From Bdellovibrionales bacterium (GTDB lineage Bacteria > Bdellovibrionota > Bdellovibrionia > Bdellovibrionales > UBA1609), in the NCBI GenBank assembly GCA_965200875.1, contig OZ241456.1, positions 1 through 64,000 of the forward strand: a stretch of 64,000 bases of DNA, given 5' to 3'. Position numbers and translations under genes: made by a program. The number at the start of each line of letters is the position of its first letter. The first letter of the stretch is position 1. The notes beneath the pieces were generated by a model. The model was not told the origin of the DNA, ran no database searches, and worked only from the letters and a program-made list of their open reading frames with translations. Of the stretch, positions 20,945-30,605 are shown piece by piece.

Positions 20945-20971
20945 AACAAATAAAAGTATCATACACGATAA

Positions 20972-21111
20972 TACTGCTTAATCGCCCGTGAAAAACCCAT
21001 AGTACTTCAACTATCACACTCTTTTTTCATGTACTTTCCCAAGGGGTGTCATTCCCGTGAAAATGGGAATCCAGGAAAATTACATACTTTTTCACGGACT
21101 ACTACTTAATC
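20972..21111. mobile_element. MITE-like element with dRS3/REP-like core
   Basis: 10-bp inverted repeats CCGTGAAAAA (20986-20995) and TTTTTCACGG (21088-21097); internal ATTCCC-N8-GGGAAT (21051-21070); flanking 12-bp direct repeats with one mismatch. Confidence 0.55.
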
Positions 21112-21131
21112 CTTTTATTTTGCTTTTATTA

Positions 21132-21159
21132 TTGCGCACTATTTTAGATCTGTTATAAT
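21132..21159 (+). promoter_or_regulatory. Sigma70-type promoter, probably giving a leaderless mRNA
   Basis: TTGCGC-N16-TATAAT with extended TGn. The ATG of the next gene is only 6 nt past the -10 box. Confidence 0.5.
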
Positions 21160-21165
21160 AGAGAG

Positions 21166-21411
21166 ATGAGTAAGTTAAAAGATGTATGGCCCTTGGTCAC
21201 TTGTATTCTACTTTATACCGGCTTTATATTTGGTGGTTTTAATTGGATGCTTAACTCTAAAATAGAGCTGGTAAATGCTCAAATAGAGCTGGTAAATGCT
21301 CAAATTAAGCCAATAAATGAAAAGCTAGGTAATCATATTACTGAGACAGATAAAAAGATTGATTCTTTAATAAAGGATGTGCAAGAGATAAAGGCCTCTT
21401 TAAAAAAATAG
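21166..21411 (+). CDS. Small TM + coiled-coil protein with 21-bp tandem duplication
   Basis: N-terminal hydrophobic helix; IELVNAQ x2 (21260-21301). Confidence 0.7.
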   Translation: MSKLKDVWPLVTCILLYTGFIFGGFNWMLNSKIELVNAQIELVNAQIKPINEKLGNHITETDKKIDSLIKDVQEIKASLKK

Positions 21412-21540
21412 CTTAATCCCCTTATTTCATATTCAAAGATATCGAAATTTTAAAAAAAACCGGATTTTATCTGAATTTAGGGCTAAAGCCTCAATACCAA
21501 AAAAATTAAATGATTGATAATCAAATGCCGTACTGATTAT

Positions 21541-24500
21541 ATGGCATCTCAAATACTAACAGAGCAAATTAAAATACTTCAAAGTAGACCTGGGCATGAA
21601 AAGGTCAAGCATATTTTATGTAATATTCTAAAAGAACAACTTGAAGCTAAAGATGATGAAATCACTTTGGAAGAAAGACTCTTATGTAGAGGTCGTATTG
21701 ATGCCCTATGGGGTCGTACCATTTTTGAAGTAAAAAGAGACTTAAGAAGAGAACAACGAGATACAGAACATCAAATTAAACAATACATTCAGTCCAAGGA
21801 AAAAGAAACAAACACAAAATATGTGGGAATCACGACTGATGGAAAAGAATATACCGCCTATTGCCTTCTTTATAATGAATTAAAAGAAATAAATAAATTT
21901 TCTATAAATAAAGACAAACCTTCTGATTTTATACAATGGCTGGAAAGTGTAATTCTTATTAAAGAACAGTTACAGGCAACACCTGAAATTATTTGCAAGG
22001 AGATAGGGCAGGGCAGTCCACTCTGCAAAAACTCACTTCTTCAAATAAATATTTTATGGAATCAGGCAAAAAATAAACCAGACATAAGACTAAAATACAA
22101 TTTATGGAAAAAATCTGTTGATATTGTATACGGAAAAGATGGCTCTGATGAATCTTTATTTATTGAACATACTTATTTGACTATTATATCTAAAGCTATA
22201 GCCCATATTGCTTTTTTTGAAGAATCACCTTTGGGAAATGCACTATTGAATGGAAAAAAATTTGAGGATTCCAATGTTTCTGGAGTCATTGAGGATGATT
22301 TTTTTAGCTGGATAACTTATTGCAATAAAGGGAATGAGCTAGTTCAGAAAATTGCAAGCCATATAAAACGATTTAATTTTTCCACTATTGAAGCAGATAT
22401 TCTAAAAGGCTTGTATGAAGGATTGATACGTCAGGAGCAAAGACATAAAATCGGAGAGTACTATACTCCTGATTGGCTGGCTGAAAGAATCTGTAAAGAA
22501 GTCATAAAAAAACCGCTTGAACAAAGAGTAATTGATCCTGCCTCAGGATCCGGTACTTTTTTGTTTCATGCGATAAGACTACTTATCTCAAAGGCTAAAA
22601 CAGAAAAAATAAATACTAAAGAAACAATTAAACTGGTATCTGAGAAAATAGCCGGAATCGATATTCATCCCGTTGCTGTTATTTTTTCAAGGATCACTTA
22701 TTTATTGGCACTGCTAAGTAAAATAAAAGAAATAGAAACAAACCGACCAGATAAAATTACTATTCCTGTATATTTAGGGGATTCCCTGCAATGGAGCAAA
22801 GATGAAATACTTGGAAAGTATGAATTAAAGATACAAGTTCCTGAAGATAAACAAACAAACGCAAGAAGAAGAGAATTGATTTTTCCACAGTCAATATGTG
22901 AAAAATCTGACAAATTTGATACAATATTGTATAAAATGATTGAGCTGGCCGGGAAATACAAAGAAAAATCCATTTTCTCAGCTTGGATAGAAAACGAGGG
23001 AGTGGATGACAATGAACATAAAAGGCTTTCAGAAACTTATGAAAATTTATTGAAACTTCAACAAGAAAACAGAAATCATATATGGGGTTATGTGGCCCGA
23101 AATCTCACCCGGCCGATATGGCTTTCCTCTGAAAGACAAAAAGCAGATGTGGTAATCGGAAACCCTCCGTGGCTGAGATTTAACGCTATGAACCAAGATA
23201 TGCAACAAAAATTTAAAAGTGAATGTAGATCCACTTTATTATGGGAAACAGGAAACACTACAAAGTTTCAAACCAGCCAAGATATTTCCACCTATTTTTT
23301 TATTATGTCTGCTTACCTATATATGAGAAAAAAAGGAACTTTAGCTTTTGTTATGCCATACGGAGTAATGAATGGAGAGCATCATTTTAATTTTAGAGCC
23401 GGACGATTTGAAATTTCCAGAAGTGAAATAAACCTAAAATTTAAAACCGCTTGGGTTTTTGATTCCAGAGTAAAAAATCTTTTTAAAGTACCTTCCTGTG
23501 TTTTGTTTTCAAAGAGACGAAAACAAAATGAAGAACCATTACCAAAAAATATAATATCCTTTAAAGGAAAATTACCTGTGAAAAATTGCAATTTAGAAGA
23601 AGCGAAAAAACACTTATCATCTCAAAGGGCAATATGGCCTCAAGATGATTTTGAAAATCGTTCTTACTATTTTGATAAATTCAAACAAGGTGCTTCTTTA
23701 GTTCCCAGAAGATTTTGTTTTGTTGAGAAAATACAAAGAGGACGACTTGGAAGTTCAAGCACAACACCTTTAGTGAAAAGTGTTGTTTCAAATTTGGATA
23801 AAGCACCTTGGAAAGATATTAACCCACTGGAATTAAAAATTGAATCTCAGTTTTTAAAACCAGTTTACACAGGAAAGTCCATTGCCCCATTTAGAATACT
23901 TAATCACAACACAGCTATTATTCCTTGGGATAATGAAAAAGGCGTGCTGGATTCCTCAATGGCAGAAAGAAGTGGCTATACAAATTTAAGCAATTATCTC
24001 GAAAAAGTTGAAAAGCTATGGAGCGACAATAGCAATGGAAGTATGATTTTTAAACGAAGAATAAACTACAATGCAACTTTAGAAAATCAATTTCCTATAT
24101 CAAAACTCAAAGTGGTTTATACAGCTTCCGGGACAAATGTAGCATCTGTGTTATTGGAAGATTCTACAGGAATAATTGATACATCTTTGTATTATACAAC
24201 AGTAAATAACAAGAATGAAGGAATATATCTGGAAGGTATTTTAAACAGTGATTTCCTTATAGAAAAAATCAGAAACTTACAAGCTCAAGGACAATGGGGG
24301 GCAAGACACATATCCAGACACTTATTAAAACCACCCATTCCAAAATACAACCCACAAGACCCATTACACCAAGATATTGTAAGCCAAACCCAAGAAATCA
24401 AAATCATTGCTCAAAAAGTAAAATTAGATCTTTCATGTTCTTTTATAAAAACACGTAGGCAAATAAAACAGAAAATAAAAAATACTGGAACAGTTTGGAA

Positions 24501-24561
24501 ACATTTGAATCAGAATGTAGAAACTTTGTTAAACAACCAACCTTTTAAAAAGACTTCTTAA
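21541..24561 (+). CDS. Type IIG/IIL restriction-modification fusion (endonuclease-N6 MTase-TRD)
   Basis: PD-(D/E)xK-like RIDALWGRTIFEVK, then GEYYTPDW, DPASGSGTF and GNPPW; ~1000 aa; ATG at 21541. Confidence 0.85.
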   Translation: MASQILTEQIKILQSRPGHEKVKHILCNILKEQLEAKDDEITLEERLLCRGRIDALWGRTIFEVKRDLRREQRDTEHQIKQYIQSKEKETNTKYVGITTDGKEYTAYCLLYNELKEINKFSINKDKPSDFIQWLESVILIKEQLQATPEIICKEIGQGSPLCKNSLLQINILWNQAKNKPDIRLKYNLWKKSVDIVYGKDGSDESLFIEHTYLTIISKAIAHIAFFEESPLGNALLNGKKFEDSNVSGVIEDDFFSWITYCNKGNELVQKIASHIKRFNFSTIEADILKGLYEGLIRQEQRHKIGEYYTPDWLAERICKEVIKKPLEQRVIDPASGSGTFLFHAIRLLISKAKTEKINTKETIKLVSEKIAGIDIHPVAVIFSRITYLLALLSKIKEIETNRPDKITIPVYLGDSLQWSKDEILGKYELKIQVPEDKQTNARRRELIFPQSICEKSDKFDTILYKMIELAGKYKEKSIFSAWIENEGVDDNEHKRLSETYENLLKLQQENRNHIWGYVARNLTRPIWLSSERQKADVVIGNPPWLRFNAMNQDMQQKFKSECRSTLLWETGNTTKFQTSQDISTYFFIMSAYLYMRKKGTLAFVMPYGVMNGEHHFNFRAGRFEISRSEINLKFKTAWVFDSRVKNLFKVPSCVLFSKRRKQNEEPLPKNIISFKGKLPVKNCNLEEAKKHLSSQRAIWPQDDFENRSYYFDKFKQGASLVPRRFCFVEKIQRGRLGSSSTTPLVKSVVSNLDKAPWKDINPLELKIESQFLKPVYTGKSIAPFRILNHNTAIIPWDNEKGVLDSSMAERSGYTNLSNYLEKVEKLWSDNSNGSMIFKRRINYNATLENQFPISKLKVVYTASGTNVASVLLEDSTGIIDTSLYYTTVNNKNEGIYLEGILNSDFLIEKIRNLQAQGQWGARHISRHLLKPPIPKYNPQDPLHQDIVSQTQEIKIIAQKVKLDLSCSFIKTRRQIKQKIKNTGTVWKHLNQNVETLLNNQPFKKTS

Positions 24562-24617
24562 TCTCCATAAAATGAATAAAAAATAATATTCTATTTTGTG
24601 GCCTGTGAAAAACTTGT

Positions 24618-24649
24618 TAACACACTGTTATCACTTGATTGTTTTATAA
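24618..24649 (+). repeat. 32-bp direct repeat, left copy
   Basis: TAACACACTGTTATCACTTGATTGTTTTATAA, 29/32 identical to 29530-29561. Confidence 0.85.
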
Positions 24650-24793
24650 AAGGTTCGGAAAAAATTGCAAAGTTTTATAACGAAACACTTTGTTTTTTTG
24701 CAAAATAAAGCCAGCTAAAAGCTGAATAAAACCCAAATTTTTGACATTTTATAATTGACTTTTAGACCAAATCTCTGATATAAATAATTCACT

Positions 24794-25021
24794 ATGGCAA
24801 CAGATCTTATTCAACAAGCTCAATACCTAAAAGAAAATGGCTTTACAGCACAGCAAGCCAATACCCTTATTTACTTCCATAAAGATAGTATCGAAAACAC
24901 ATTAGCCACTAAAAAAGATATCGAAATTTTAAAAAAAGATCTTATATTAAAACTGTCAGGTATTATGGGTAGTATGATAACAATTGGAATTATTATACTA
25001 GGACTCCTGATTAAATTTTAA
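24794..25021 (+). CDS. DUF1640-like small coiled-coil/TM protein
   Basis: LKENGFTAQQA...LATKKDI motif and C-terminal TM; paralog of 1612..1857. Confidence 0.75.
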   Translation: MATDLIQQAQYLKENGFTAQQANTLIYFHKDSIENTLATKKDIEILKKDLILKLSGIMGSMITIGIIILGLLIKF

Positions 25022-25074
25022 GCTATTAAAAAAATCGACAATAACATCCCTCTATCGGTTTCGACTGGGAGGTG

Positions 25075-25110
25075 CGAGGCGATCGGAAGGTCGCTTTCGT
25101 TTTTTTTTTT
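25075..25110 (+). terminator. Intrinsic terminator
   Basis: AGGCGATC-GGAA-GGTCGCTT hairpin followed by T11. Confidence 0.75.
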
Positions 25111-25113
25111 GAA

Positions 25114-25236
25114 ATGTCAGAACAAATAAGAAAATGCAATGACAATACAAACACTTTAAAATGGATCGTGGCCGTATTGGCTTTAACTGTCTTTGTTCTC
25201 TTTGGCATTGTCTTAATGCTTTATCTTCAAAAGTGA
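25114..25236 (+). CDS. Putative 40-aa single-TM peptide
   Basis: MSEQIRKCNDNTNTLKWIVAVLALTVFVLFGIVLMLYLQK; below the ORF-track cutoff; no clear SD. Confidence 0.4.
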   Translation: MSEQIRKCNDNTNTLKWIVAVLALTVFVLFGIVLMLYLQK

Positions 25237-25253
25237 AAATAAGTGTAAATCAT

Positions 25254-27422
25254 TTAATCACAGCGAATATTAGTATTATATATGTAACTATTACCTTGCT
25301 GAGAGCATTCAGCTGTTACCTCACAATAAGCTTTACGGCTTCTTATCCAGCGTTTTGGTGTTACTCCTTGAGGACAAAGTCTTCTGTCAAAATATGCCGC
25401 ACAGTTGGCGTCTTGGTTGTTATTGGTGTTTGTATATGTACAACAATACCCGGTGCTAAGTAGATTTTCAGGAGGGCAACAGTGGCCACTGTTACCTAGT
25501 ACTGCCCCAGAAGGGCAGCATCCTCTAAATCCCCTTTGACTGCGTACTCCATATTCTCCATCGGGGCAACATTTATTAACGGACCGTTGATAATGTGTAT
25601 TGATTGGGCAACATTTCCCATTTGAATTGTGCCAACCATTTTGGCAACAAAGTCCTTGTGAATTGTGATAGCCATCTCGGCAACAAATTCCATTTGCATA
25701 GTGCTTGCCTTTCGGGCAACATCTCCCATTTGAATTATGATAGTTATTCGGGCAACAAATCCCATTTGAATTATATCTCCCATGCGAGCAACATTTTCCA
25801 TTTGAATTGTGGTAGCCATTCCGGCAACATTTCCTATTTGAATTGTGATAGCCATTCCGGCAACAAATCCCATTTGATTGATGATGACCATAAGGACATG
25901 GCCCGTCCAAACATGTCCACCCATCAGTAGGAGTATAATGTATCTCACAATAAGCTTTACGATCCCTCATCCACCATTTTGGAGCTATGCCTGGAGGACA
26001 ACGGGAGGCTTGTGGACCTCTAGTATTGTCACTTCTATATGTGCAACAGTATCCATTGCTAAGTAGATTTTCAGGAGGGCAACAGTGGCCACTGCTAGAG
26101 CGTCTTCCACCAAGTGGGCAACACCCTAAACTCCCATGTTGACTGCGTATTGCAGATTCTCCTGTTGGGCAACAAAGTCCTTGTGAATTGTGCCAACCAT
26201 TTTTGCAACATTTTCCATTTGAATTGTGGTAGCCATCTCGGCAACAAAGTCCTTGTGAATTGTGCCAACTCTGCCAGCAACAAATTCCATTTGAATTATA
26301 TCTTCTTGGATCCCACGAGCAACAAATTCCATTTGAATTATAGTCGTTTATATTGCAACAAATCCCATTTGAATTTCGCCAACCACTTTTGCAACAAATT
26401 CCCCTTGAATTATATTTATTAGGGGGGCATTTACATCTTTTAGATATTGGATCAAATCTTAATCCTGTTCGACTTGTATCACATGAAATACAATTCCCAT
26501 CAGCGTTTTTATTATATCCTGCTAGACAAACACATTGATTTTCTATTTTTTCTTGATTAACAGGGCATACTGCTTGGCATTTTCCTTTTATGAATACTGG
26601 TTTATTTCTATCTTTGCATTCACACTGCTTATTTTCAGTATTATAAGTGCTTCCACCTGTGCATAGAATCTGACACTCAACTGTCCCGTCTTCTTGTCTT
26701 ACAGGATATTGTCCAGGTATGTTGCATGCTTTTGTTAGTATTATATTATCAGGGATTATCTCTTCATTATCGTCTTTTAAAAAACCGGACAATGTGTGTA
26801 CATGTTGTGGAGACATATCCAGATTCACTGTTTGAAAAAAAGAGGTGGGGATAGGAGTACAAGAATTTGTACTGGTAAGATACATTGTATTTTGGGGGCA
26901 ATATATAGGTGGTTTTGTAGTATCAAAAACATTACAATTTTCTGTGGTACAACTATTTATATTATAAGTTATATTGCATGTAATGTAATAACATCCTTTT
27001 TTATCACCACTTGCTTTGCATTCCTTGCCTTTCCTTGTCTTTTGTTCTCCTGCTAATAAAGGCTTACTGTAATATACATAAAACTTTCGATGATCTTCTG
27101 TACCTGTAAGAGCCATATCCACAATATGTATATTCCCTTCATTAAAAGGTTTATCCATATTGATTTCAACGCCATTTGATTTTATCTTTGTAACAGGAAG
27201 TTTTGACGGTTGCAGGTTCTCCCAGCAATTTTGTGATAAAATATTTGTTATTGTTTGTGTTAAGACTTTTTCTGAAAAATTTGTACTTTTAACCTTTGCT
27301 ATATTTATTGACTGTGTACTGTGTTTTAAAGAACCTATGGTAATAACAAGGCTACCCAAGGTAAAAGCCAGCGTTCCTATAAGCCCACCTCCTGTAAAAC
27401 CTTTATTACCTTTTATTCTCAT
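25254..27422 (-). CDS. PilX-like minor pilin with large Cys-rich repeat domain (putative pilus-tip adhesin)
   Basis: MRIKGNKG|FTGGGLIGTLAFTLGSLVI prepilin-like N-terminus without Glu5; EGF-like Cys spacing; 22 CC doublets. Confidence 0.7.
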   Translation of the reverse strand: MRIKGNKGFTGGGLIGTLAFTLGSLVITIGSLKHSTQSINIAKVKSTNFSEKVLTQTITNILSQNCWENLQPSKLPVTKIKSNGVEINMDKPFNEGNIHIVDMALTGTEDHRKFYVYYSKPLLAGEQKTRKGKECKASGDKKGCYYITCNITYNINSCTTENCNVFDTTKPPIYCPQNTMYLTSTNSCTPIPTSFFQTVNLDMSPQHVHTLSGFLKDDNEEIIPDNIILTKACNIPGQYPVRQEDGTVECQILCTGGSTYNTENKQCECKDRNKPVFIKGKCQAVCPVNQEKIENQCVCLAGYNKNADGNCISCDTSRTGLRFDPISKRCKCPPNKYNSRGICCKSGWRNSNGICCNINDYNSNGICCSWDPRRYNSNGICCWQSWHNSQGLCCRDGYHNSNGKCCKNGWHNSQGLCCPTGESAIRSQHGSLGCCPLGGRRSSSGHCCPPENLLSNGYCCTYRSDNTRGPQASRCPPGIAPKWWMRDRKAYCEIHYTPTDGWTCLDGPCPYGHHQSNGICCRNGYHNSNRKCCRNGYHNSNGKCCSHGRYNSNGICCPNNYHNSNGRCCPKGKHYANGICCRDGYHNSQGLCCQNGWHNSNGKCCPINTHYQRSVNKCCPDGEYGVRSQRGFRGCCPSGAVLGNSGHCCPPENLLSTGYCCTYTNTNNNQDANCAAYFDRRLCPQGVTPKRWIRSRKAYCEVTAECSQQGNSYIYNTNIRCD
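25430..26430 (-). repeat. Coding 36-bp (12-aa) tandem repeat CCxxGxHNSNGx arranged in two ~600-bp super-repeats
   Basis: Repeated CAACA...CCATTTGAATT units; exact 38-bp duplication at 25454-25491 and 26057-26094. Confidence 0.9.
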
Positions 27423-27430
27423 ACTTGTCC

Positions 27431-28744
27431 TTAATCAATGTCTCCTTCTTCACATGGGTGATTGAAGGTAGATTCACTCACCGGTCTTTCATCTCCTTCT
27501 ATGTGCCACTCACCACCCGGGTGTGTACGCCGAACATTAGCGCATCTTGTTCTATTTAAGTGTCCATACATATACTGATCGGTAGGATCAGTTTGTCCAG
27601 TGTCTGTATACACTTGAGTTTCTGGGAAACCATATTTACATGTACATTCCCCGGCTACAAAACATTTTCCAAATCCACAAAAACACCCTCCATCTGGGTT
27701 TTTCGCCCTTCCATGTTTACATATACATTCTCCATCATTCCGTTGCTCCATCCCAGATATACACTCACATGATCCAGTAACGGGGTTTATTTTCTTATTT
27801 GTTGAACACTTACAATTTCCGTTACTGTCTAGTATTTGACTATCATCAGGACAACTACAAGCTAAATCATTTTGTTTGTATACTTGACCACCATGACAGA
27901 TTTTTTTACATACATTCCTCTTATTTCCGTTAACATCTTCTTCTAACACAATATGTTCTCCTTCTGGACATGCAAAAATTGTACAATCCACCCTTGGCTT
28001 CAGTGTTCCGTCAGCTTTCATACCAAAACCAGTAGCCACCTGCCCTTCAGGACACTTTATATCAAAACATATAGCTTTTGGTGGGTCTCCTGGGTTGTCC
28101 CCTGCTTTTGTTCCTATTAAAATCCCATCATCATCACATCCGTCTATACAATCTTTTTCTTCTCTCCCTGTAGTCCCCACTAAAATTTTACCCGGATCAC
28201 AAGAGACATCTAAAAAATTACCCGCAGTATCAGGAATACTACAGTTTACGGGGTTACATGTTTGGGCGGTTGATATGTTACAGGAAATTCGAAAACATCC
28301 GCTTAAGTTATTTGCTGTACAAGTATTACCTCCTTTTGTTTTTTGCTGTTCTCTCATTCCTTGAGCACTATATTTGTAATATAAATTAAAAATTTTAGTT
28401 TCTGGTGGTGAGGTGGGAGTGTATAAAGTCTTCTCCACCACAGTAATAGTATTGAAGGCATCATCATCAAAAGTAGGTAACACAGCCCTTTGTAATGTAC
28501 CACCATCAGCAGGAGGAGGTAAATTTGTAAGGTCGTTTGTTACTAAATCGGTGCAATAGTTATTGTTATTTAAAATTGTATAGACTTGATTTTTTAGTTT
28601 CAATGTATCTTGATGAGTATTTAAAACTTGTGTGTTTAAAGATACTTGTTGAGAAGTGTTTATAAGACCGAAAACTGCAACACTTCCAACAGTGAGCATA
28701 ATTAAAAGCTCAACAAGACTTCCGCCCTTATTGTTTATTTTCAT
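27431..28744 (-). CDS. Prepilin-type N-terminal cleavage domain protein, Cys-rich (minor pilin)
   Basis: MKINNKG|GSLVELLIMLTVGSVAVFGL with Glu5; ATG 2 nt after the upstream stop; Cys-rich C-terminal half. Confidence 0.8.
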   Translation of the reverse strand: MKINNKGGSLVELLIMLTVGSVAVFGLINTSQQVSLNTQVLNTHQDTLKLKNQVYTILNNNNYCTDLVTNDLTNLPPPADGGTLQRAVLPTFDDDAFNTITVVEKTLYTPTSPPETKIFNLYYKYSAQGMREQQKTKGGNTCTANNLSGCFRISCNISTAQTCNPVNCSIPDTAGNFLDVSCDPGKILVGTTGREEKDCIDGCDDDGILIGTKAGDNPGDPPKAICFDIKCPEGQVATGFGMKADGTLKPRVDCTIFACPEGEHIVLEEDVNGNKRNVCKKICHGGQVYKQNDLACSCPDDSQILDSNGNCKCSTNKKINPVTGSCECISGMEQRNDGECICKHGRAKNPDGGCFCGFGKCFVAGECTCKYGFPETQVYTDTGQTDPTDQYMYGHLNRTRCANVRRTHPGGEWHIEGDERPVSESTFNHPCEEGDID

Positions 28745-28746
28745 AT

Positions 28747-29417
28747 TTATTTCCAACAATCATTATCTTGTTTAAATCCCTCTGTATTCTCTAAATTATG
28801 TAAACCTCCACCCCAGCCTTTACTCGCTTTGCAAGTAGTAGGGCCTAAAACTAAATAAGAAGTTCTATCATCATGACACCATATTTGATATTCCCCAGTT
28901 TTATATGAGACACGGGATAATACCTGAAGTTTTTTTCCTGAAACTTCTTTCTGTATACTTAAACAATGATATTGATGCCTTGAGGCGTTATTATTTTTAG
29001 TAAAAAGAATACAATCTGCTCCAGCAGGGCAGGTAAAATCCAGCTTTTTTTTTAAATCATCTTTTAGAGGTCTTTGTGGTGTGTCTTTTGCCTCGCAAGG
29101 AGTGTCTGGTGTCGCACTCGGATCGGGTAGTCCATTAGAACCCAATAGAGTAATCGCCCACCCACCATTTACGGAAATACAGTTTCTTACAGCATTAGCA
29201 AAAAGGACGCCGTGGAGCTTTAGGTCTTTTTTATTTACAGCAAGTGTATAACCTTTATAGGAGACATAAGCGACACCGCTTATTATAGAAAGAATGCCTA
29301 TTGTTAACAGAATCTCAACAAGCGTATAGCCTGTTGCATTTGAGAATATTCGAATCAGCTTATAACGCAGAGCATGAGGGGGGGGGTAGAGAGGGTTTTT
29401 CTTTGGATTTCTTTCAC
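28747..29417 (-). CDS. Type IV pilin-like protein frameshifted at a poly-C9 tract (putative phase-variable, OFF state)
   Basis: The frame of ORF 28747..29145 extends upstream through NATG|YTLVEILLTIGILSIISGVAY but has no start codon. GTG at 29417 with AAGGA SD is one base out of frame across G9 at 29378-29386. Confidence 0.8.
29378..29386 (-). repeat. Homopolymer C9 (G9 on +) slippage tract in prepilin leader
   Basis: Nine consecutive G. Confidence 0.9.
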
Positions 29418-29529
29418 ATTTACTTCCTTATTAAGATTTATGGTCTTTAAAATTAATCGGCCTTTATCGTAAAACACTTTATTTTTTTAATATTCCAATA
29501 CTCTATACAAGTTGGCACGGAACAAGTGA

Positions 29530-29561
29530 TAACATACTGTGATCACTTGATTTTTTTATAA
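29530..29561 (+). repeat. 32-bp direct repeat, right copy, overlapping palindrome CAAGTGAT-N11-ATCACTTG
   Basis: TAACATACTGTGATCACTTGATTTTTTTATAA; palindrome spans 29523-29549. Confidence 0.85.
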
Positions 29562-29618
29562 TTTTCCGGGGAAATTTGTCAGTGAAAAAAATTTTATCAC
29601 GCCCTCTGGTTTTGTTTT

Positions 29619-30605
29619 TTACTCTGGGGGTTCTTCTTCAGCGGGATTTTCCTCTTCCACCTCTGAAGGAACATTTAAAGCCATGTATTGTTTCCAACTC
29701 AACTCCACAGATACAAAAGATAAACCCGACACCAAACACATGGCCTTTACAGGATTGAGATTTTTAATTTCCAATACACCTTCTTTTTGAGATTCCAATA
29801 TTTCCTTGGCGTCCCATTTAAAACGAGGGTCTTCCAAAATCGACAACACCTCTTGCTCTATTTCCAAAGAATCCAAACCGGAAATCCGTAAATCATAACG
29901 CAAAAAACCTTTTTCTGAGCTAGCCTGTGCATTTCCGTATTTTTCCACATCAGAAAAATCCTGATTGACCTCCTGAGAGCTTGGACTATCCCACTGATCC
30001 TCCTCAGATGGTAACTCCTCTTCTTCTTTTACTGAGGTTTCATTATGTTCCATATCCGGTGGTGCCTGAACAACCCCAGCATCTTCTGAAGAATCCCCTA
30101 AAGACGCCTCTTCTCCCTCTGAATTTGATTCAGCTGACAAAAAGTCTTCCGAGGGGTTATGTTCTTCGGCTTCTTCCTTTGAGGGTAAAAATTCACCAGC
30201 ACCTTCTGAAAAATCCTCTTTCTCCAATTCTTTCTCGCCACCAACCACGGGAGATACTTCCTCACCAACCACGGGAGGAGATACTTCACTTTCCGCTGGA
30301 GGAGATATTTCCTCACCTTCTGCTCCCGAAAAGAGGTCATCTGCTGATTGAGAGTTTTCCAGATTCTCTTCTGCTTGATGAAGCAAGCTTTGTTGCTCTG
30401 CCGGTGAGGTATCGGAGGCAGATTCCGGTTCAGAAGAAAAAAAATTCTCTTTCGATTCGTGTACCACCTTGAGGCTACCTGCCTCCCATTTGAGAACAGA
30501 CCTGCAATAATCACAGGATAACAGGGCATCCATATCACTTAATCCATCCGATGGAACCGGGGGAGGACTAAACTCTTTTTTACAACAAGGGCATACCTGT
30601 TTCAT
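29619..30605 (-). CDS. Hypothetical protein with N-terminal zinc ribbon and acidic disordered linker
   Basis: CPCC...CDYC; Glu/Ser/Pro-rich centre; ATGA overlap with the secA stop. Confidence 0.75.

Follow-up and report, generated by a model that had tools for sequence, protein, structure and literature searches.

The question raised by the locus described here is whether a block of pilin genes in a member of the Bdellovibrionales is an exchangeable cassette, delimited by its flanking repeats, or is varied in another way. The block lies in the first 64,000 nucleotides of contig OZ241456.1 (assembly GCA_965200875.1), and this whole stretch is referred to as the window. A sequence-only reading had described three coupled prepilin genes between two 32-bp direct repeats as a pilus-tip module with three layers of variation, namely ON/OFF slippage at a poly-C tract, repeat shuffling, and gain or loss of the entire cassette. 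The analysis indicates that the block is probably one member of a multi-copy, slipped-strand-switched family of minor type IV pilin modules. While the repeat-bounded cassette is not real, the repertoire of switched modules is, and it exceeds what was first described. In the following, G000 is the genome holding the window (1.87 Mb in 2 contigs), G001-G014 are relatives of the same genus, C1 is contig 1 and L numbers are fetched loci.

The slippage tract in the leader of pilin 1

All three prepilin genes (cleavage motifs G/YTLVE, G/GSLVE and G/FTGGG, the stroke marking the cleavage site) were found on the minus strand, each with a class III leader that ends in Gly and is followed by ~21 hydrophobic residues. 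They are separated by only 2 nt (pilin 1/pilin 2) and 8 nt (pilin 2/pilin 3). In pilin 1 the Gly-1 codon is located at 29331-29329 and the stop codon at 28749-28747 (Table 1).

The reported interruption of pilin 1 was confirmed: a C9 tract shifts the reading frame and leaves it one base from the pilin frame. The frame that starts at the GTG at 29417, behind the Shine-Dalgarno (SD) sequence AAGGAAG, stops after 20 codons, at 29355, and one added C would put it into the frame of pilin 1. No ATG, GTG or TTG is present between the tract and the cleavage site. The module in the window is OFF as assembled. As in contingency loci, a non-triplet repeat of slippable length is found at the 5' end of a gene for a surface protein, and its length of C9 falls within the G9-20 range given for Neisseria pilC. 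A class III signal peptide is defined as a leader of 6-26 residues ending in Gly, and the prepilin leader is cytoplasmic and cleaved after this conserved Gly (available text of PMC4471445). The in-frame leader of pilin 1 has ~30 aa, that at C1:648869 has 83 aa and leaders in G003 exceed 300 aa, lengths that lie outside the definition in that text.

Putatively switched pilin loci within the genome

A search for paralogous cassettes, proposed in the sequence-only reading as a check, yielded ten related pilin loci in G000: seven copies of pilin 1 and three more loci that begin with a pilin-2-type gene. Seven of the ten carry a C9-C11 tract after the start codon; no C tract was found within 600 nt upstream of the remaining loci C1:1511750, 1275807 and 353236. 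Four leaders are near-identical and contain 9, 10, 9 and 11 C, respectively. The leader of the window pilin 1 shares 91-94% identity with those of three paralogues, versus 69-75% for the pilin bodies. Three of the seven tract-bearing loci are in frame, one of them as a separate leader open reading frame (ORF) ending 3 nt before the pilin ATG. The genome as a whole contains 23 G/C runs of at least 9, against 0.77 expected from base composition. A separate related-locus search across genome contigs returned no confirmed relative.

One lone, unswitched pilin-1 paralogue (C1:1275768-1276367) is located directly upstream of a GspE-like gene, and a link of the family to the type II secretion system (T2SS) is possible. 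G000 also has a second family of poly-C tracts (C9-C11; C1:851146, 861313, 906735, 912071, 1181582 and 1252027), found between -35-like and -10-like hexamers upstream of genes for small secreted proteins or lipoproteins. Their spacer varies from 15 to 17 nt with tract length, which points to phase variation through promoter spacing.

The same placement in relatives

Relatives of pilin 1 are present in 12 of the 14 genomes of the same genus and in none of 26 more distant genomes searched; the pilin-2/3 family likewise occurs in 12 of the 14. In G003, G005 and G009, 30 of the 54 tracts of C>=11 lie on the sense strand at most 1.6 kb upstream of a pilin-2/3-family match (13/19, 9/18 and 8/17, respectively), while 0.34 would be expected, and antisense tracts upstream of family matches number zero. 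Gene order in these three genomes is rotated, with the Cys-rich genes first and pilin 1 last, and the tract is again found in the first gene. Both ON and OFF states are represented and tract length varies between copies and strains, as in contingency loci: near-identical duplicates in G005 carry C31 (off) and C23 (on). Among the 39 C-tract loci counted over four genomes, 10 have the tract in frame with the pilin, close to the one-third expected; an alternative start would raise this to 11, and one locus that lacks an open start was scored as off. Since 2-3 C-tract loci are in frame per genome, the idea that one module is ON at a time is unsupported.

Homopolymers are not the only repeats at this position. 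A survey of 1.8 kb upstream of 50 family matches revealed eight further non-triplet units of 2-8 nt in the same place: CATT/TCAT, TACA, CAAC, CA, TCACCAA, CACCCAA, ATCGTTTT and a GTTACAGC-type unit. Leader repeats of 4-8 nt reach 76 units. All eight loci of G011 carry such a repeat (TCACCAA x13-37 and TCAT x9-23); G009 has ATCGTTTT x21 and x32, and repeats were also found in G006 (CAAC and CAATCAC, 2/3 loci), G007 (TACA and CA, 3/4) and G002 (CACCCAA, 1/4). Two paralogous cassettes of G003 (L060:1429-3078 and L132) begin with CATT repeats six bases past the ATG, 14 units in the in-frame copy and 27 in the out-of-frame one. Of 20 such loci in G002, G003, G006, G007, G009 and G011, 19 have a frame that stays open between repeat and pilin, and 4 to 6 are in frame. 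The nine units tested are all non-triplet and stop-free on the pilin strand, and five of them have stops on the other strand. Control regions around secA contained 5 repeats in 178 kb, one of which is itself a pilin leader. In G008 (4/4 loci) and G012 (5/5 loci, chosen for their tracts from 14 matches) the repeats lie in an upstream ORF. The placement of repeats between start codon and cleavage site thus recurs across loci and genomes, and the ON/OFF layer of the earlier description is strongly supported by the sequence and by tract placement genome- and genus-wide. Because the genomes are kin, the enrichment does not count as a set of independent events; despite this, the occurrence of different units at one position points to repeated selection for a frameshift switch.

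Several relatives show further forms of the family. G012 has a tandem array (C7:822598-886219; L126, L170, L171) of 14 pilin-2/3-family genes with open frames of ~700-1450 aa, five of them preceded by C9-C12 tracts in short upstream ORFs, and a long 12-nt tandem repeat lies inside the array. In G003 (L092-L099, L112-L117) the prepilin leaders range from ~60 to over 340 codons, contain repeated segments and are all open in frame. An unswitched form was found in G002 (L131, C1:822500-841500), where small pilins alternate with Cys-rich pilin fusions without leader repeats. G010 contains 262 C/G runs of at least 9, versus 1-40 in the other relatives searched.

Alternative explanations for the tracts

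The frameshift could be a homopolymer error of the assembly in an intact gene. The near-complete single contigs suggest long reads, and a one-base error at C9-C10 would be plausible. C10 and C12 forms were indeed present among contigs in a search at 29377, a position to which paralogues cross-map. One record of 151 letters, from another study, aligns to the window allele without gaps (29353-29412) and agrees with C9, with flanks of 25-26 letters on each side, below the bar of 31. Furthermore, 17 of 37 G/C tracts of at least 8 are located within intact ORFs that span 200 aa or more, and miscalling cannot explain why tracts and repeats of 4-8 nt sit in pilin leaders. An assembly error is therefore considered highly unlikely, and the locus remains a switch even if its tract length was miscalled.

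Alternatively, the tracts may influence transcription or the coupling to an internal start, or represent unselected decay in a genome littered with insertion sequences (IS). Three paralogous leaders of G000 contain an ATG five codons before the cleavage site, in two of them behind an SD-like AGGGG, which could bypass the switch; at C1:1407444, in G008 and in G012 the repeat belongs to a distinct ORF further upstream; the second poly-C family of G000 occupies promoter spacers; and some paralogous cassettes of G000 are broken or truncated. Nevertheless, the window locus lacks such an internal start, leaders in G003 stay open for up to ~340 codons after the tract, and in many loci the repeats start a few codons past an SD-preceded start codon. 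Strand and position of the repeats are fixed, which decay does not predict. These explanations are judged unlikely, and a translational switch in the prepilin leader is preferred.

Besides the bypass, the broken cassettes, the kinship and the cross-mapping C10 and C12 contigs mentioned above, other observations weigh against this switch. No leader repeat was found in G001 (0/3 loci) or in G010 (0/5; one distant C9 in a high background), and the five loci of G014 have only one repeat, 962 nt away. MutS is encoded in all 15 genomes. The C15-C31 lengths in relatives may be miscalled. No switching event was observed at the window locus among the contigs, where paralogues cross-map. The leader is not under amino-acid selection (4 synonymous and 9 non-synonymous changes in one pair). 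A free leader sequence with a conserved frame is understandable, however, because the leader stays cytoplasmic and is cut off after the conserved Gly.

Pilin domains and a predicted CC-repeat rod

Pilin 1 scored over the cut-off for PF07963 (25.7 bits) and TIGR02532. Its structure model (pLDDT 80) has the pilin architecture, in which a long N-terminal helix packs against an antiparallel sheet, and was compared with known structures using VIA, in which the top 11 rows were all pilins or pseudopilins. The best match was PilA4 (6xxd; Z 7.8, rmsd 3.4, 122 aligned residues), and the type IV pilins scored Z 7.8 to 5.9. Pilin 2 and pilin 3 gave no Pfam match, and pilin 3 had no Pfam or NCBIfam match over the cut-off; the nearest Atlas neighbours of pilin 2 are N_methyl-bearing clusters of Bdellovibrionota, and these together with gene content suggest a Bdellovibrionota-like organism. 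With Foldseek, neither pilin 1 nor pilin 3 matched a PDB entry at E<=0.001.

Glu5 is present in pilin 1, where it is invariant in 20/20 homologues, and in pilin 2, and is absent from pilin 3. A last subunit that lacks Glu5 is the pattern of PilX and GspK. Pilin 3 and its paralogues at C1:650762, 724629, 1300493 and 349649 all lack Glu5 and are each encoded by the last gene of a minor pilin cluster. The model of pilin 3 is weak (pLDDT 56), which counts against the preferred reading of the block. Its N-terminal part gave weak VIA matches, with GspK (3ci0_K) first at Z 5.6, tied with PilA at Z 5.3. A complex prediction for the three pilin domains scored 0.21 against a mark of 0.32 and is evidence neither way.

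Pilin 3 contains 74 Cys, and the 22 CC doublets reported for it were counted and confirmed. The doublets are mostly 12 aa apart and form two blocks that are 51% identical. Part of the CC repeat matched zebrafish granulin (6cku) with a middling score (Z 4.6, rmsd 1.7 over 50 residues). The Galaxin-like repeat PF24748 had no match in pilin 3 at E<=1, and among 15 CC-repeat homologues one (P0009) passed the cut-off and one more fell below it. The CC repeat had 15 other matches, including pilin fusions like pilin 3, two TadE-type pseudopilins and eukaryotic proteins. P0010 and P0013 are the TadE-type pseudopilins with the same repeat, the latter with Bdellovibrionota as its source label. The occurrence of the CC repeat on TadE-type pseudopilins as well suggests that the rod has been grafted on two pilus classes.

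The number of CC doublets ranges from 0 to 35 among paralogues and relatives, so that the proposed layer of repeat variation is supported as variation between paralogues and between genomes. Pilin 1 also shares a 60-bp patch, at 97% identity, with a distant paralogue. The doublet counts and this patch together indicate that modules exchange pieces over evolutionary time.

Proposed mechanism and machinery

It is proposed that replication slippage would alter the length of the repeat and that each module would flip ON or OFF independently. The repeat lies in a cytoplasmic leader that would be removed by prepilin peptidase, leaving the mature pilin unaffected; this location would explain why leaders tolerate poly-Pro and lengths of ~30 to over 300 residues. 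In the OFF state (C9 in the window), translation would stop after 20 codons, and genes 2 and 3 would probably be silenced through the 2-nt coupling and Rho; such polarity would follow from the short gap between the genes and from Rho being encoded in the genome.

When ON, a module would have its subunits assembled by machinery encoded elsewhere, most likely that of type IVa pili (T4aP) and possibly the T2SS. The absence of pilus assembly genes and recombinases from the window, as originally claimed, was borne out by family searches of the genome, in which T2SSE ATPases, secretins, PilM and tyrosine and serine recombinases had no matches within 1-64000. Elsewhere in G000 a PilB/PilT/PilC-like cluster, PilM, four secretins, a GspE cluster, Tad-like machinery and Rho are encoded. 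The subunit lacking Glu5 would, if at the tip, display a disulfide-stacked rod, and a population would thus display a changing set of pilus tips. The tip location and a role in recognition of prey or host are inferred by analogy.

The flanking repeats and the accessory island

The direct repeats at 24618 and 29530 were confirmed and are 29/32 identical. According to the sequence-only reading the block is a cassette that is excised, gained or swapped at these repeats; a variant of this explanation is a composite transposon between outer IS ends. The repeats are real and directly oriented, an IS end is found just upstream in 3 of 4 loci with this leader, and the right copy ends in right-end-like sequence, so that a composite element would have its outer ends, at least in form. 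Moreover, the block is absent from this position in relatives.

The identity of the repeats argues otherwise. A repeat profile found 64 copies at E<1e-3 in the genome and 81 at E<1, mostly intergenic (one match, E 0.85, in the reversed genome), so that the motif is dispersed and not confined to the pilin module. One copy in G000 lies just upstream of a truncated DUF772 transposase gene, and 16 loci were retrieved and 14 of them inspected, 12 of which have the motif ahead of an IS5 transposase gene. In intact IS5-family elements of G009 (1.6 kb) the repeat sits among the first 120 nt; bases 16-120 of one of them align with the left window copy over 106 nt at 79% identity, and intact copies with a 445-aa transposase (L077, L082) have terminal inverted repeats. 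By sequence comparison the flanking repeats are left-end stumps of IS5-family elements, without a present role. A dif-like or Fur-like reading of the palindromic repeat was dropped after the IS link was shown.

The window repeats are non-random as sequences, but their position around the pilin block is at chance: pairs in the same orientation with a spacing of 1-6.5 kb occur 8 times, with 6.0 expected at random (5-95%: 2-10). Among the matches listed, paralogous cassettes have no second direct copy downstream. No deletion joint between 24618 and 29530 was found in the contigs of run X1, in which unbroken contigs cross both repeats, and no empty site or circular form was seen at a depth of ~16, although contigs drop rare forms. 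Contig joints of 29561/29567 to 24658-24675 were rejected as circles, the intervening letters being of several kinds, 3 of 4 of which match other genomic repeat copies; a 25236-26633 joint, of depth 2 and with 24 letters on one of its sides, was set aside as unreliable. The IS remnants show no evident target duplication, and the one sizeable transposase of this type that G000 yielded is truncated. Nor are a nearby recombinase and sites confined to the module present, as in site-specific cassettes or shufflons.

The comparison with relatives covered the region beside secA in 13 of the 14 (G014, in which the contig ends, was omitted). The pilin block, the DUF1640-like gene and a restriction-modification (RM) gene are absent from this position in 13/13, and the flanking genes are adjacent in 5, separated by one unrelated gene in 3, and rearranged or without the bamE-like gene in 5. 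G003 has a related two-gene cassette ~10 kb further on. Absence of the block from relatives was thus as predicted, but the missing DNA extends ~3.6 kb beyond the left repeat and includes the RM gene (1015 aa, type IIG-like). By sequence comparison the accessory island spans ~20950 to 29610 and exceeds the block between the repeats. Gain or loss of a cassette through the 32-bp repeats is very improbable and largely refuted. IS activity may have contributed to placement of the island, with no dedicated cassette mechanism; the slippage-switched module family remains the preferred reading of the block.

Other features of the region

The DUF1640-like gene, which lies with the pilin block between the repeats, has ten or more dispersed relatives and is a bystander that does not belong to the module. 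Its 75-aa product matched PF07798 (CCDC90-like/DUF1640) below the cut-off (E 3.6e-4). A tandem run of ~six DUF1640-like genes with variable coiled-coil repeat length is found at C1:1721090-1724398 of G000. At 29619-30605 of the window a 328-aa protein with an N-terminal CxxC..CxxC zinc finger, a long acidic linker and no family match is encoded; its gene overlaps the secA stop codon and is located beside secA in 12/13 relatives. A promoter scan gave results at chance (16 versus 17.8 expected).

Table 1. Coordinates of the pilin block and neighbouring features in the window
Feature	Position	Strand	Basis or remark
SD-like AAGGAAG	29423..29429	-	Sequence; 5 nt ahead of the pilin 1 GTG start; kept in paralogues C1:648900, 722866, 1303886
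Pilin 1 leader-coding region, GTG start to Gly-1	29329..29417	-	Comparison with three paralogous leaders
C9 slippage tract	29378..29386	-	OFF as assembled; one unit off in-frame
Mature pilin 1, 193 aa, with Glu5, type IV pilin fold	28747..29328	-	PF07963, TIGR02532, structure model
Pilin 2, 437 aa, G/GSLVE, Glu5, 30 Cys	27431..28744	-	Sequence; Atlas neighbours
Pilin 3, 722 aa, G/FTGGG, without Glu5; pilin-like N-terminal domain, Cys-rich linker, CC-repeat rod	25254..27422	-	Sequence and model
CC-doublet region, 22 doublets in ~12-aa repeat, two duplicated blocks	25428..26420	-	Sequence; modelled as stacked beta-hairpin rod, granulin-like
Terminator-like hairpin between convergent DUF1640-like gene and pilin 3	25076..25099	+	Consensus match only
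DUF1640/CCDC90-like gene, 75 aa, dispersed paralogue family, bystander	24794..25021	+	Below-cut-off profile match
IS5-family left-end remnant holding left 32-bp repeat	24598..24722	+	Identity to intact G009 IS
IS5-family left-end remnant holding right 32-bp repeat, then right-end-like sequence (mini-element)	29513..29608	+	Sequence comparison
Type IIG-like RM gene, outside the repeats, same accessory island	21514..24561	+	Profile matches, synteny
Pair of degenerate IS5 terminal-repeat-like sequences, far edge of island	20981..21102	.	Weak: 6-7 mismatches in 24

Relation to known systems

Neisseria pilC1 and pilC2, which encode a pilus tip adhesin under translational phase variation, carry a homopolymer (G9-20) in the signal-peptide region, and these paralogues are switched independently by slipped-strand mispairing (PMC13190605, PMC5953494, available text). 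The loci described here similarly have a homopolymer in the leader-coding region of a pilus-associated gene; in contrast to the two PilY1-type pilC copies, they are class III prepilins heading modules of 1-3 genes, and a single genome may hold as many as 13 or more switched loci. Neisseria opa genes occur at 4 to 12 dispersed loci, each with its own CTTCT repeat (PMC5953494, available text). The pilin loci are also dispersed, multi-copy surface genes, each switched by a repeat, but opa encodes outer-membrane proteins and uses one unit, whereas nine kinds of unit, differing between species, were found with the pilins.

Myxococcus xanthus has paralogous Kil/Tad Tips (kilLMN 1-4) and three T4aP minor pilin/PilY1 clusters, which vary in their C-terminal domains and are combined differently for different prey (PMC12075869, PMC13190605, available text). 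The pilin modules resemble these in being several paralogous three-gene minor pilin clusters and differ from the Tad-type Kil Tips in their type IVa-like subunits, Cys-rich rods and repeat switches; the term phase variation is absent from the main text of PMC12075869 on Kil Tips. Pilin domains with a grafted C-terminal module that form a heterotrimer are described for PilB/PilC of Streptococcus sanguinis, GspI/J/K and PilV/W/X (PMC12075869, PMC4471445, available text). The present modules are distinguished from such minor pilins and priming trimers by the CC-doublet rod, granulin-like in the model, by genes 2 and 3 being paralogues and by the rotated gene order in relatives. The IncI plasmid shufflon, which varies the PilV tip by inversion, provides alternative pilus tips, but it requires a recombinase and inverted sites, neither of which is present at the window locus. 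The flanking stumps agree with IS5-family elements (DUF772 transposase) in having the repeat in the first 120 nt of the left end and differ from them in lacking a transposase gene.

By analogy, the switch would be like that of Neisseria pilC and opa and the payload like the interchangeable Myxococcus tips. No report joining a repeat switch with interchangeable pilin tips, nor one in Bdellovibrionota, was found in a literature search that left most subscription journals and supplements outside its coverage.

Significance

How Bdellovibrio-like bacteria vary their recognition of prey or host is an open question, and interchangeable tips have been shown only recently, in Myxococcus. The prepilin leader would be an economical site for a switch, leaving no scar on the product. 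Annotation will tend to mistake genes of this kind for pseudogenes or assembly errors. Since the DNA itself reveals whether each tip module is ON or OFF, tip usage could be compared across hosts, tissues and phage exposure without culture.

Large switched repertoires are typical of long-term animal colonisers under selection, such as Neisseria (PMC5953494, available text), and the size of the repertoire hints at the lifestyle of this uncultured genus. It is tentatively suggested, as a possibility somewhat short of an even one, that a reduced-genome genus of Bdellovibrionota has a combinatorial switchboard of pilus tips: as many as twelve or more dispersed modules in one genome, each under the control of a separate leader repeat, with the switch re-invented with at least nine units and with Cys-rod tips that would set which prey, host surface or phage is engaged. 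If true, this would represent opa-style antigenic variation in a predator lineage.

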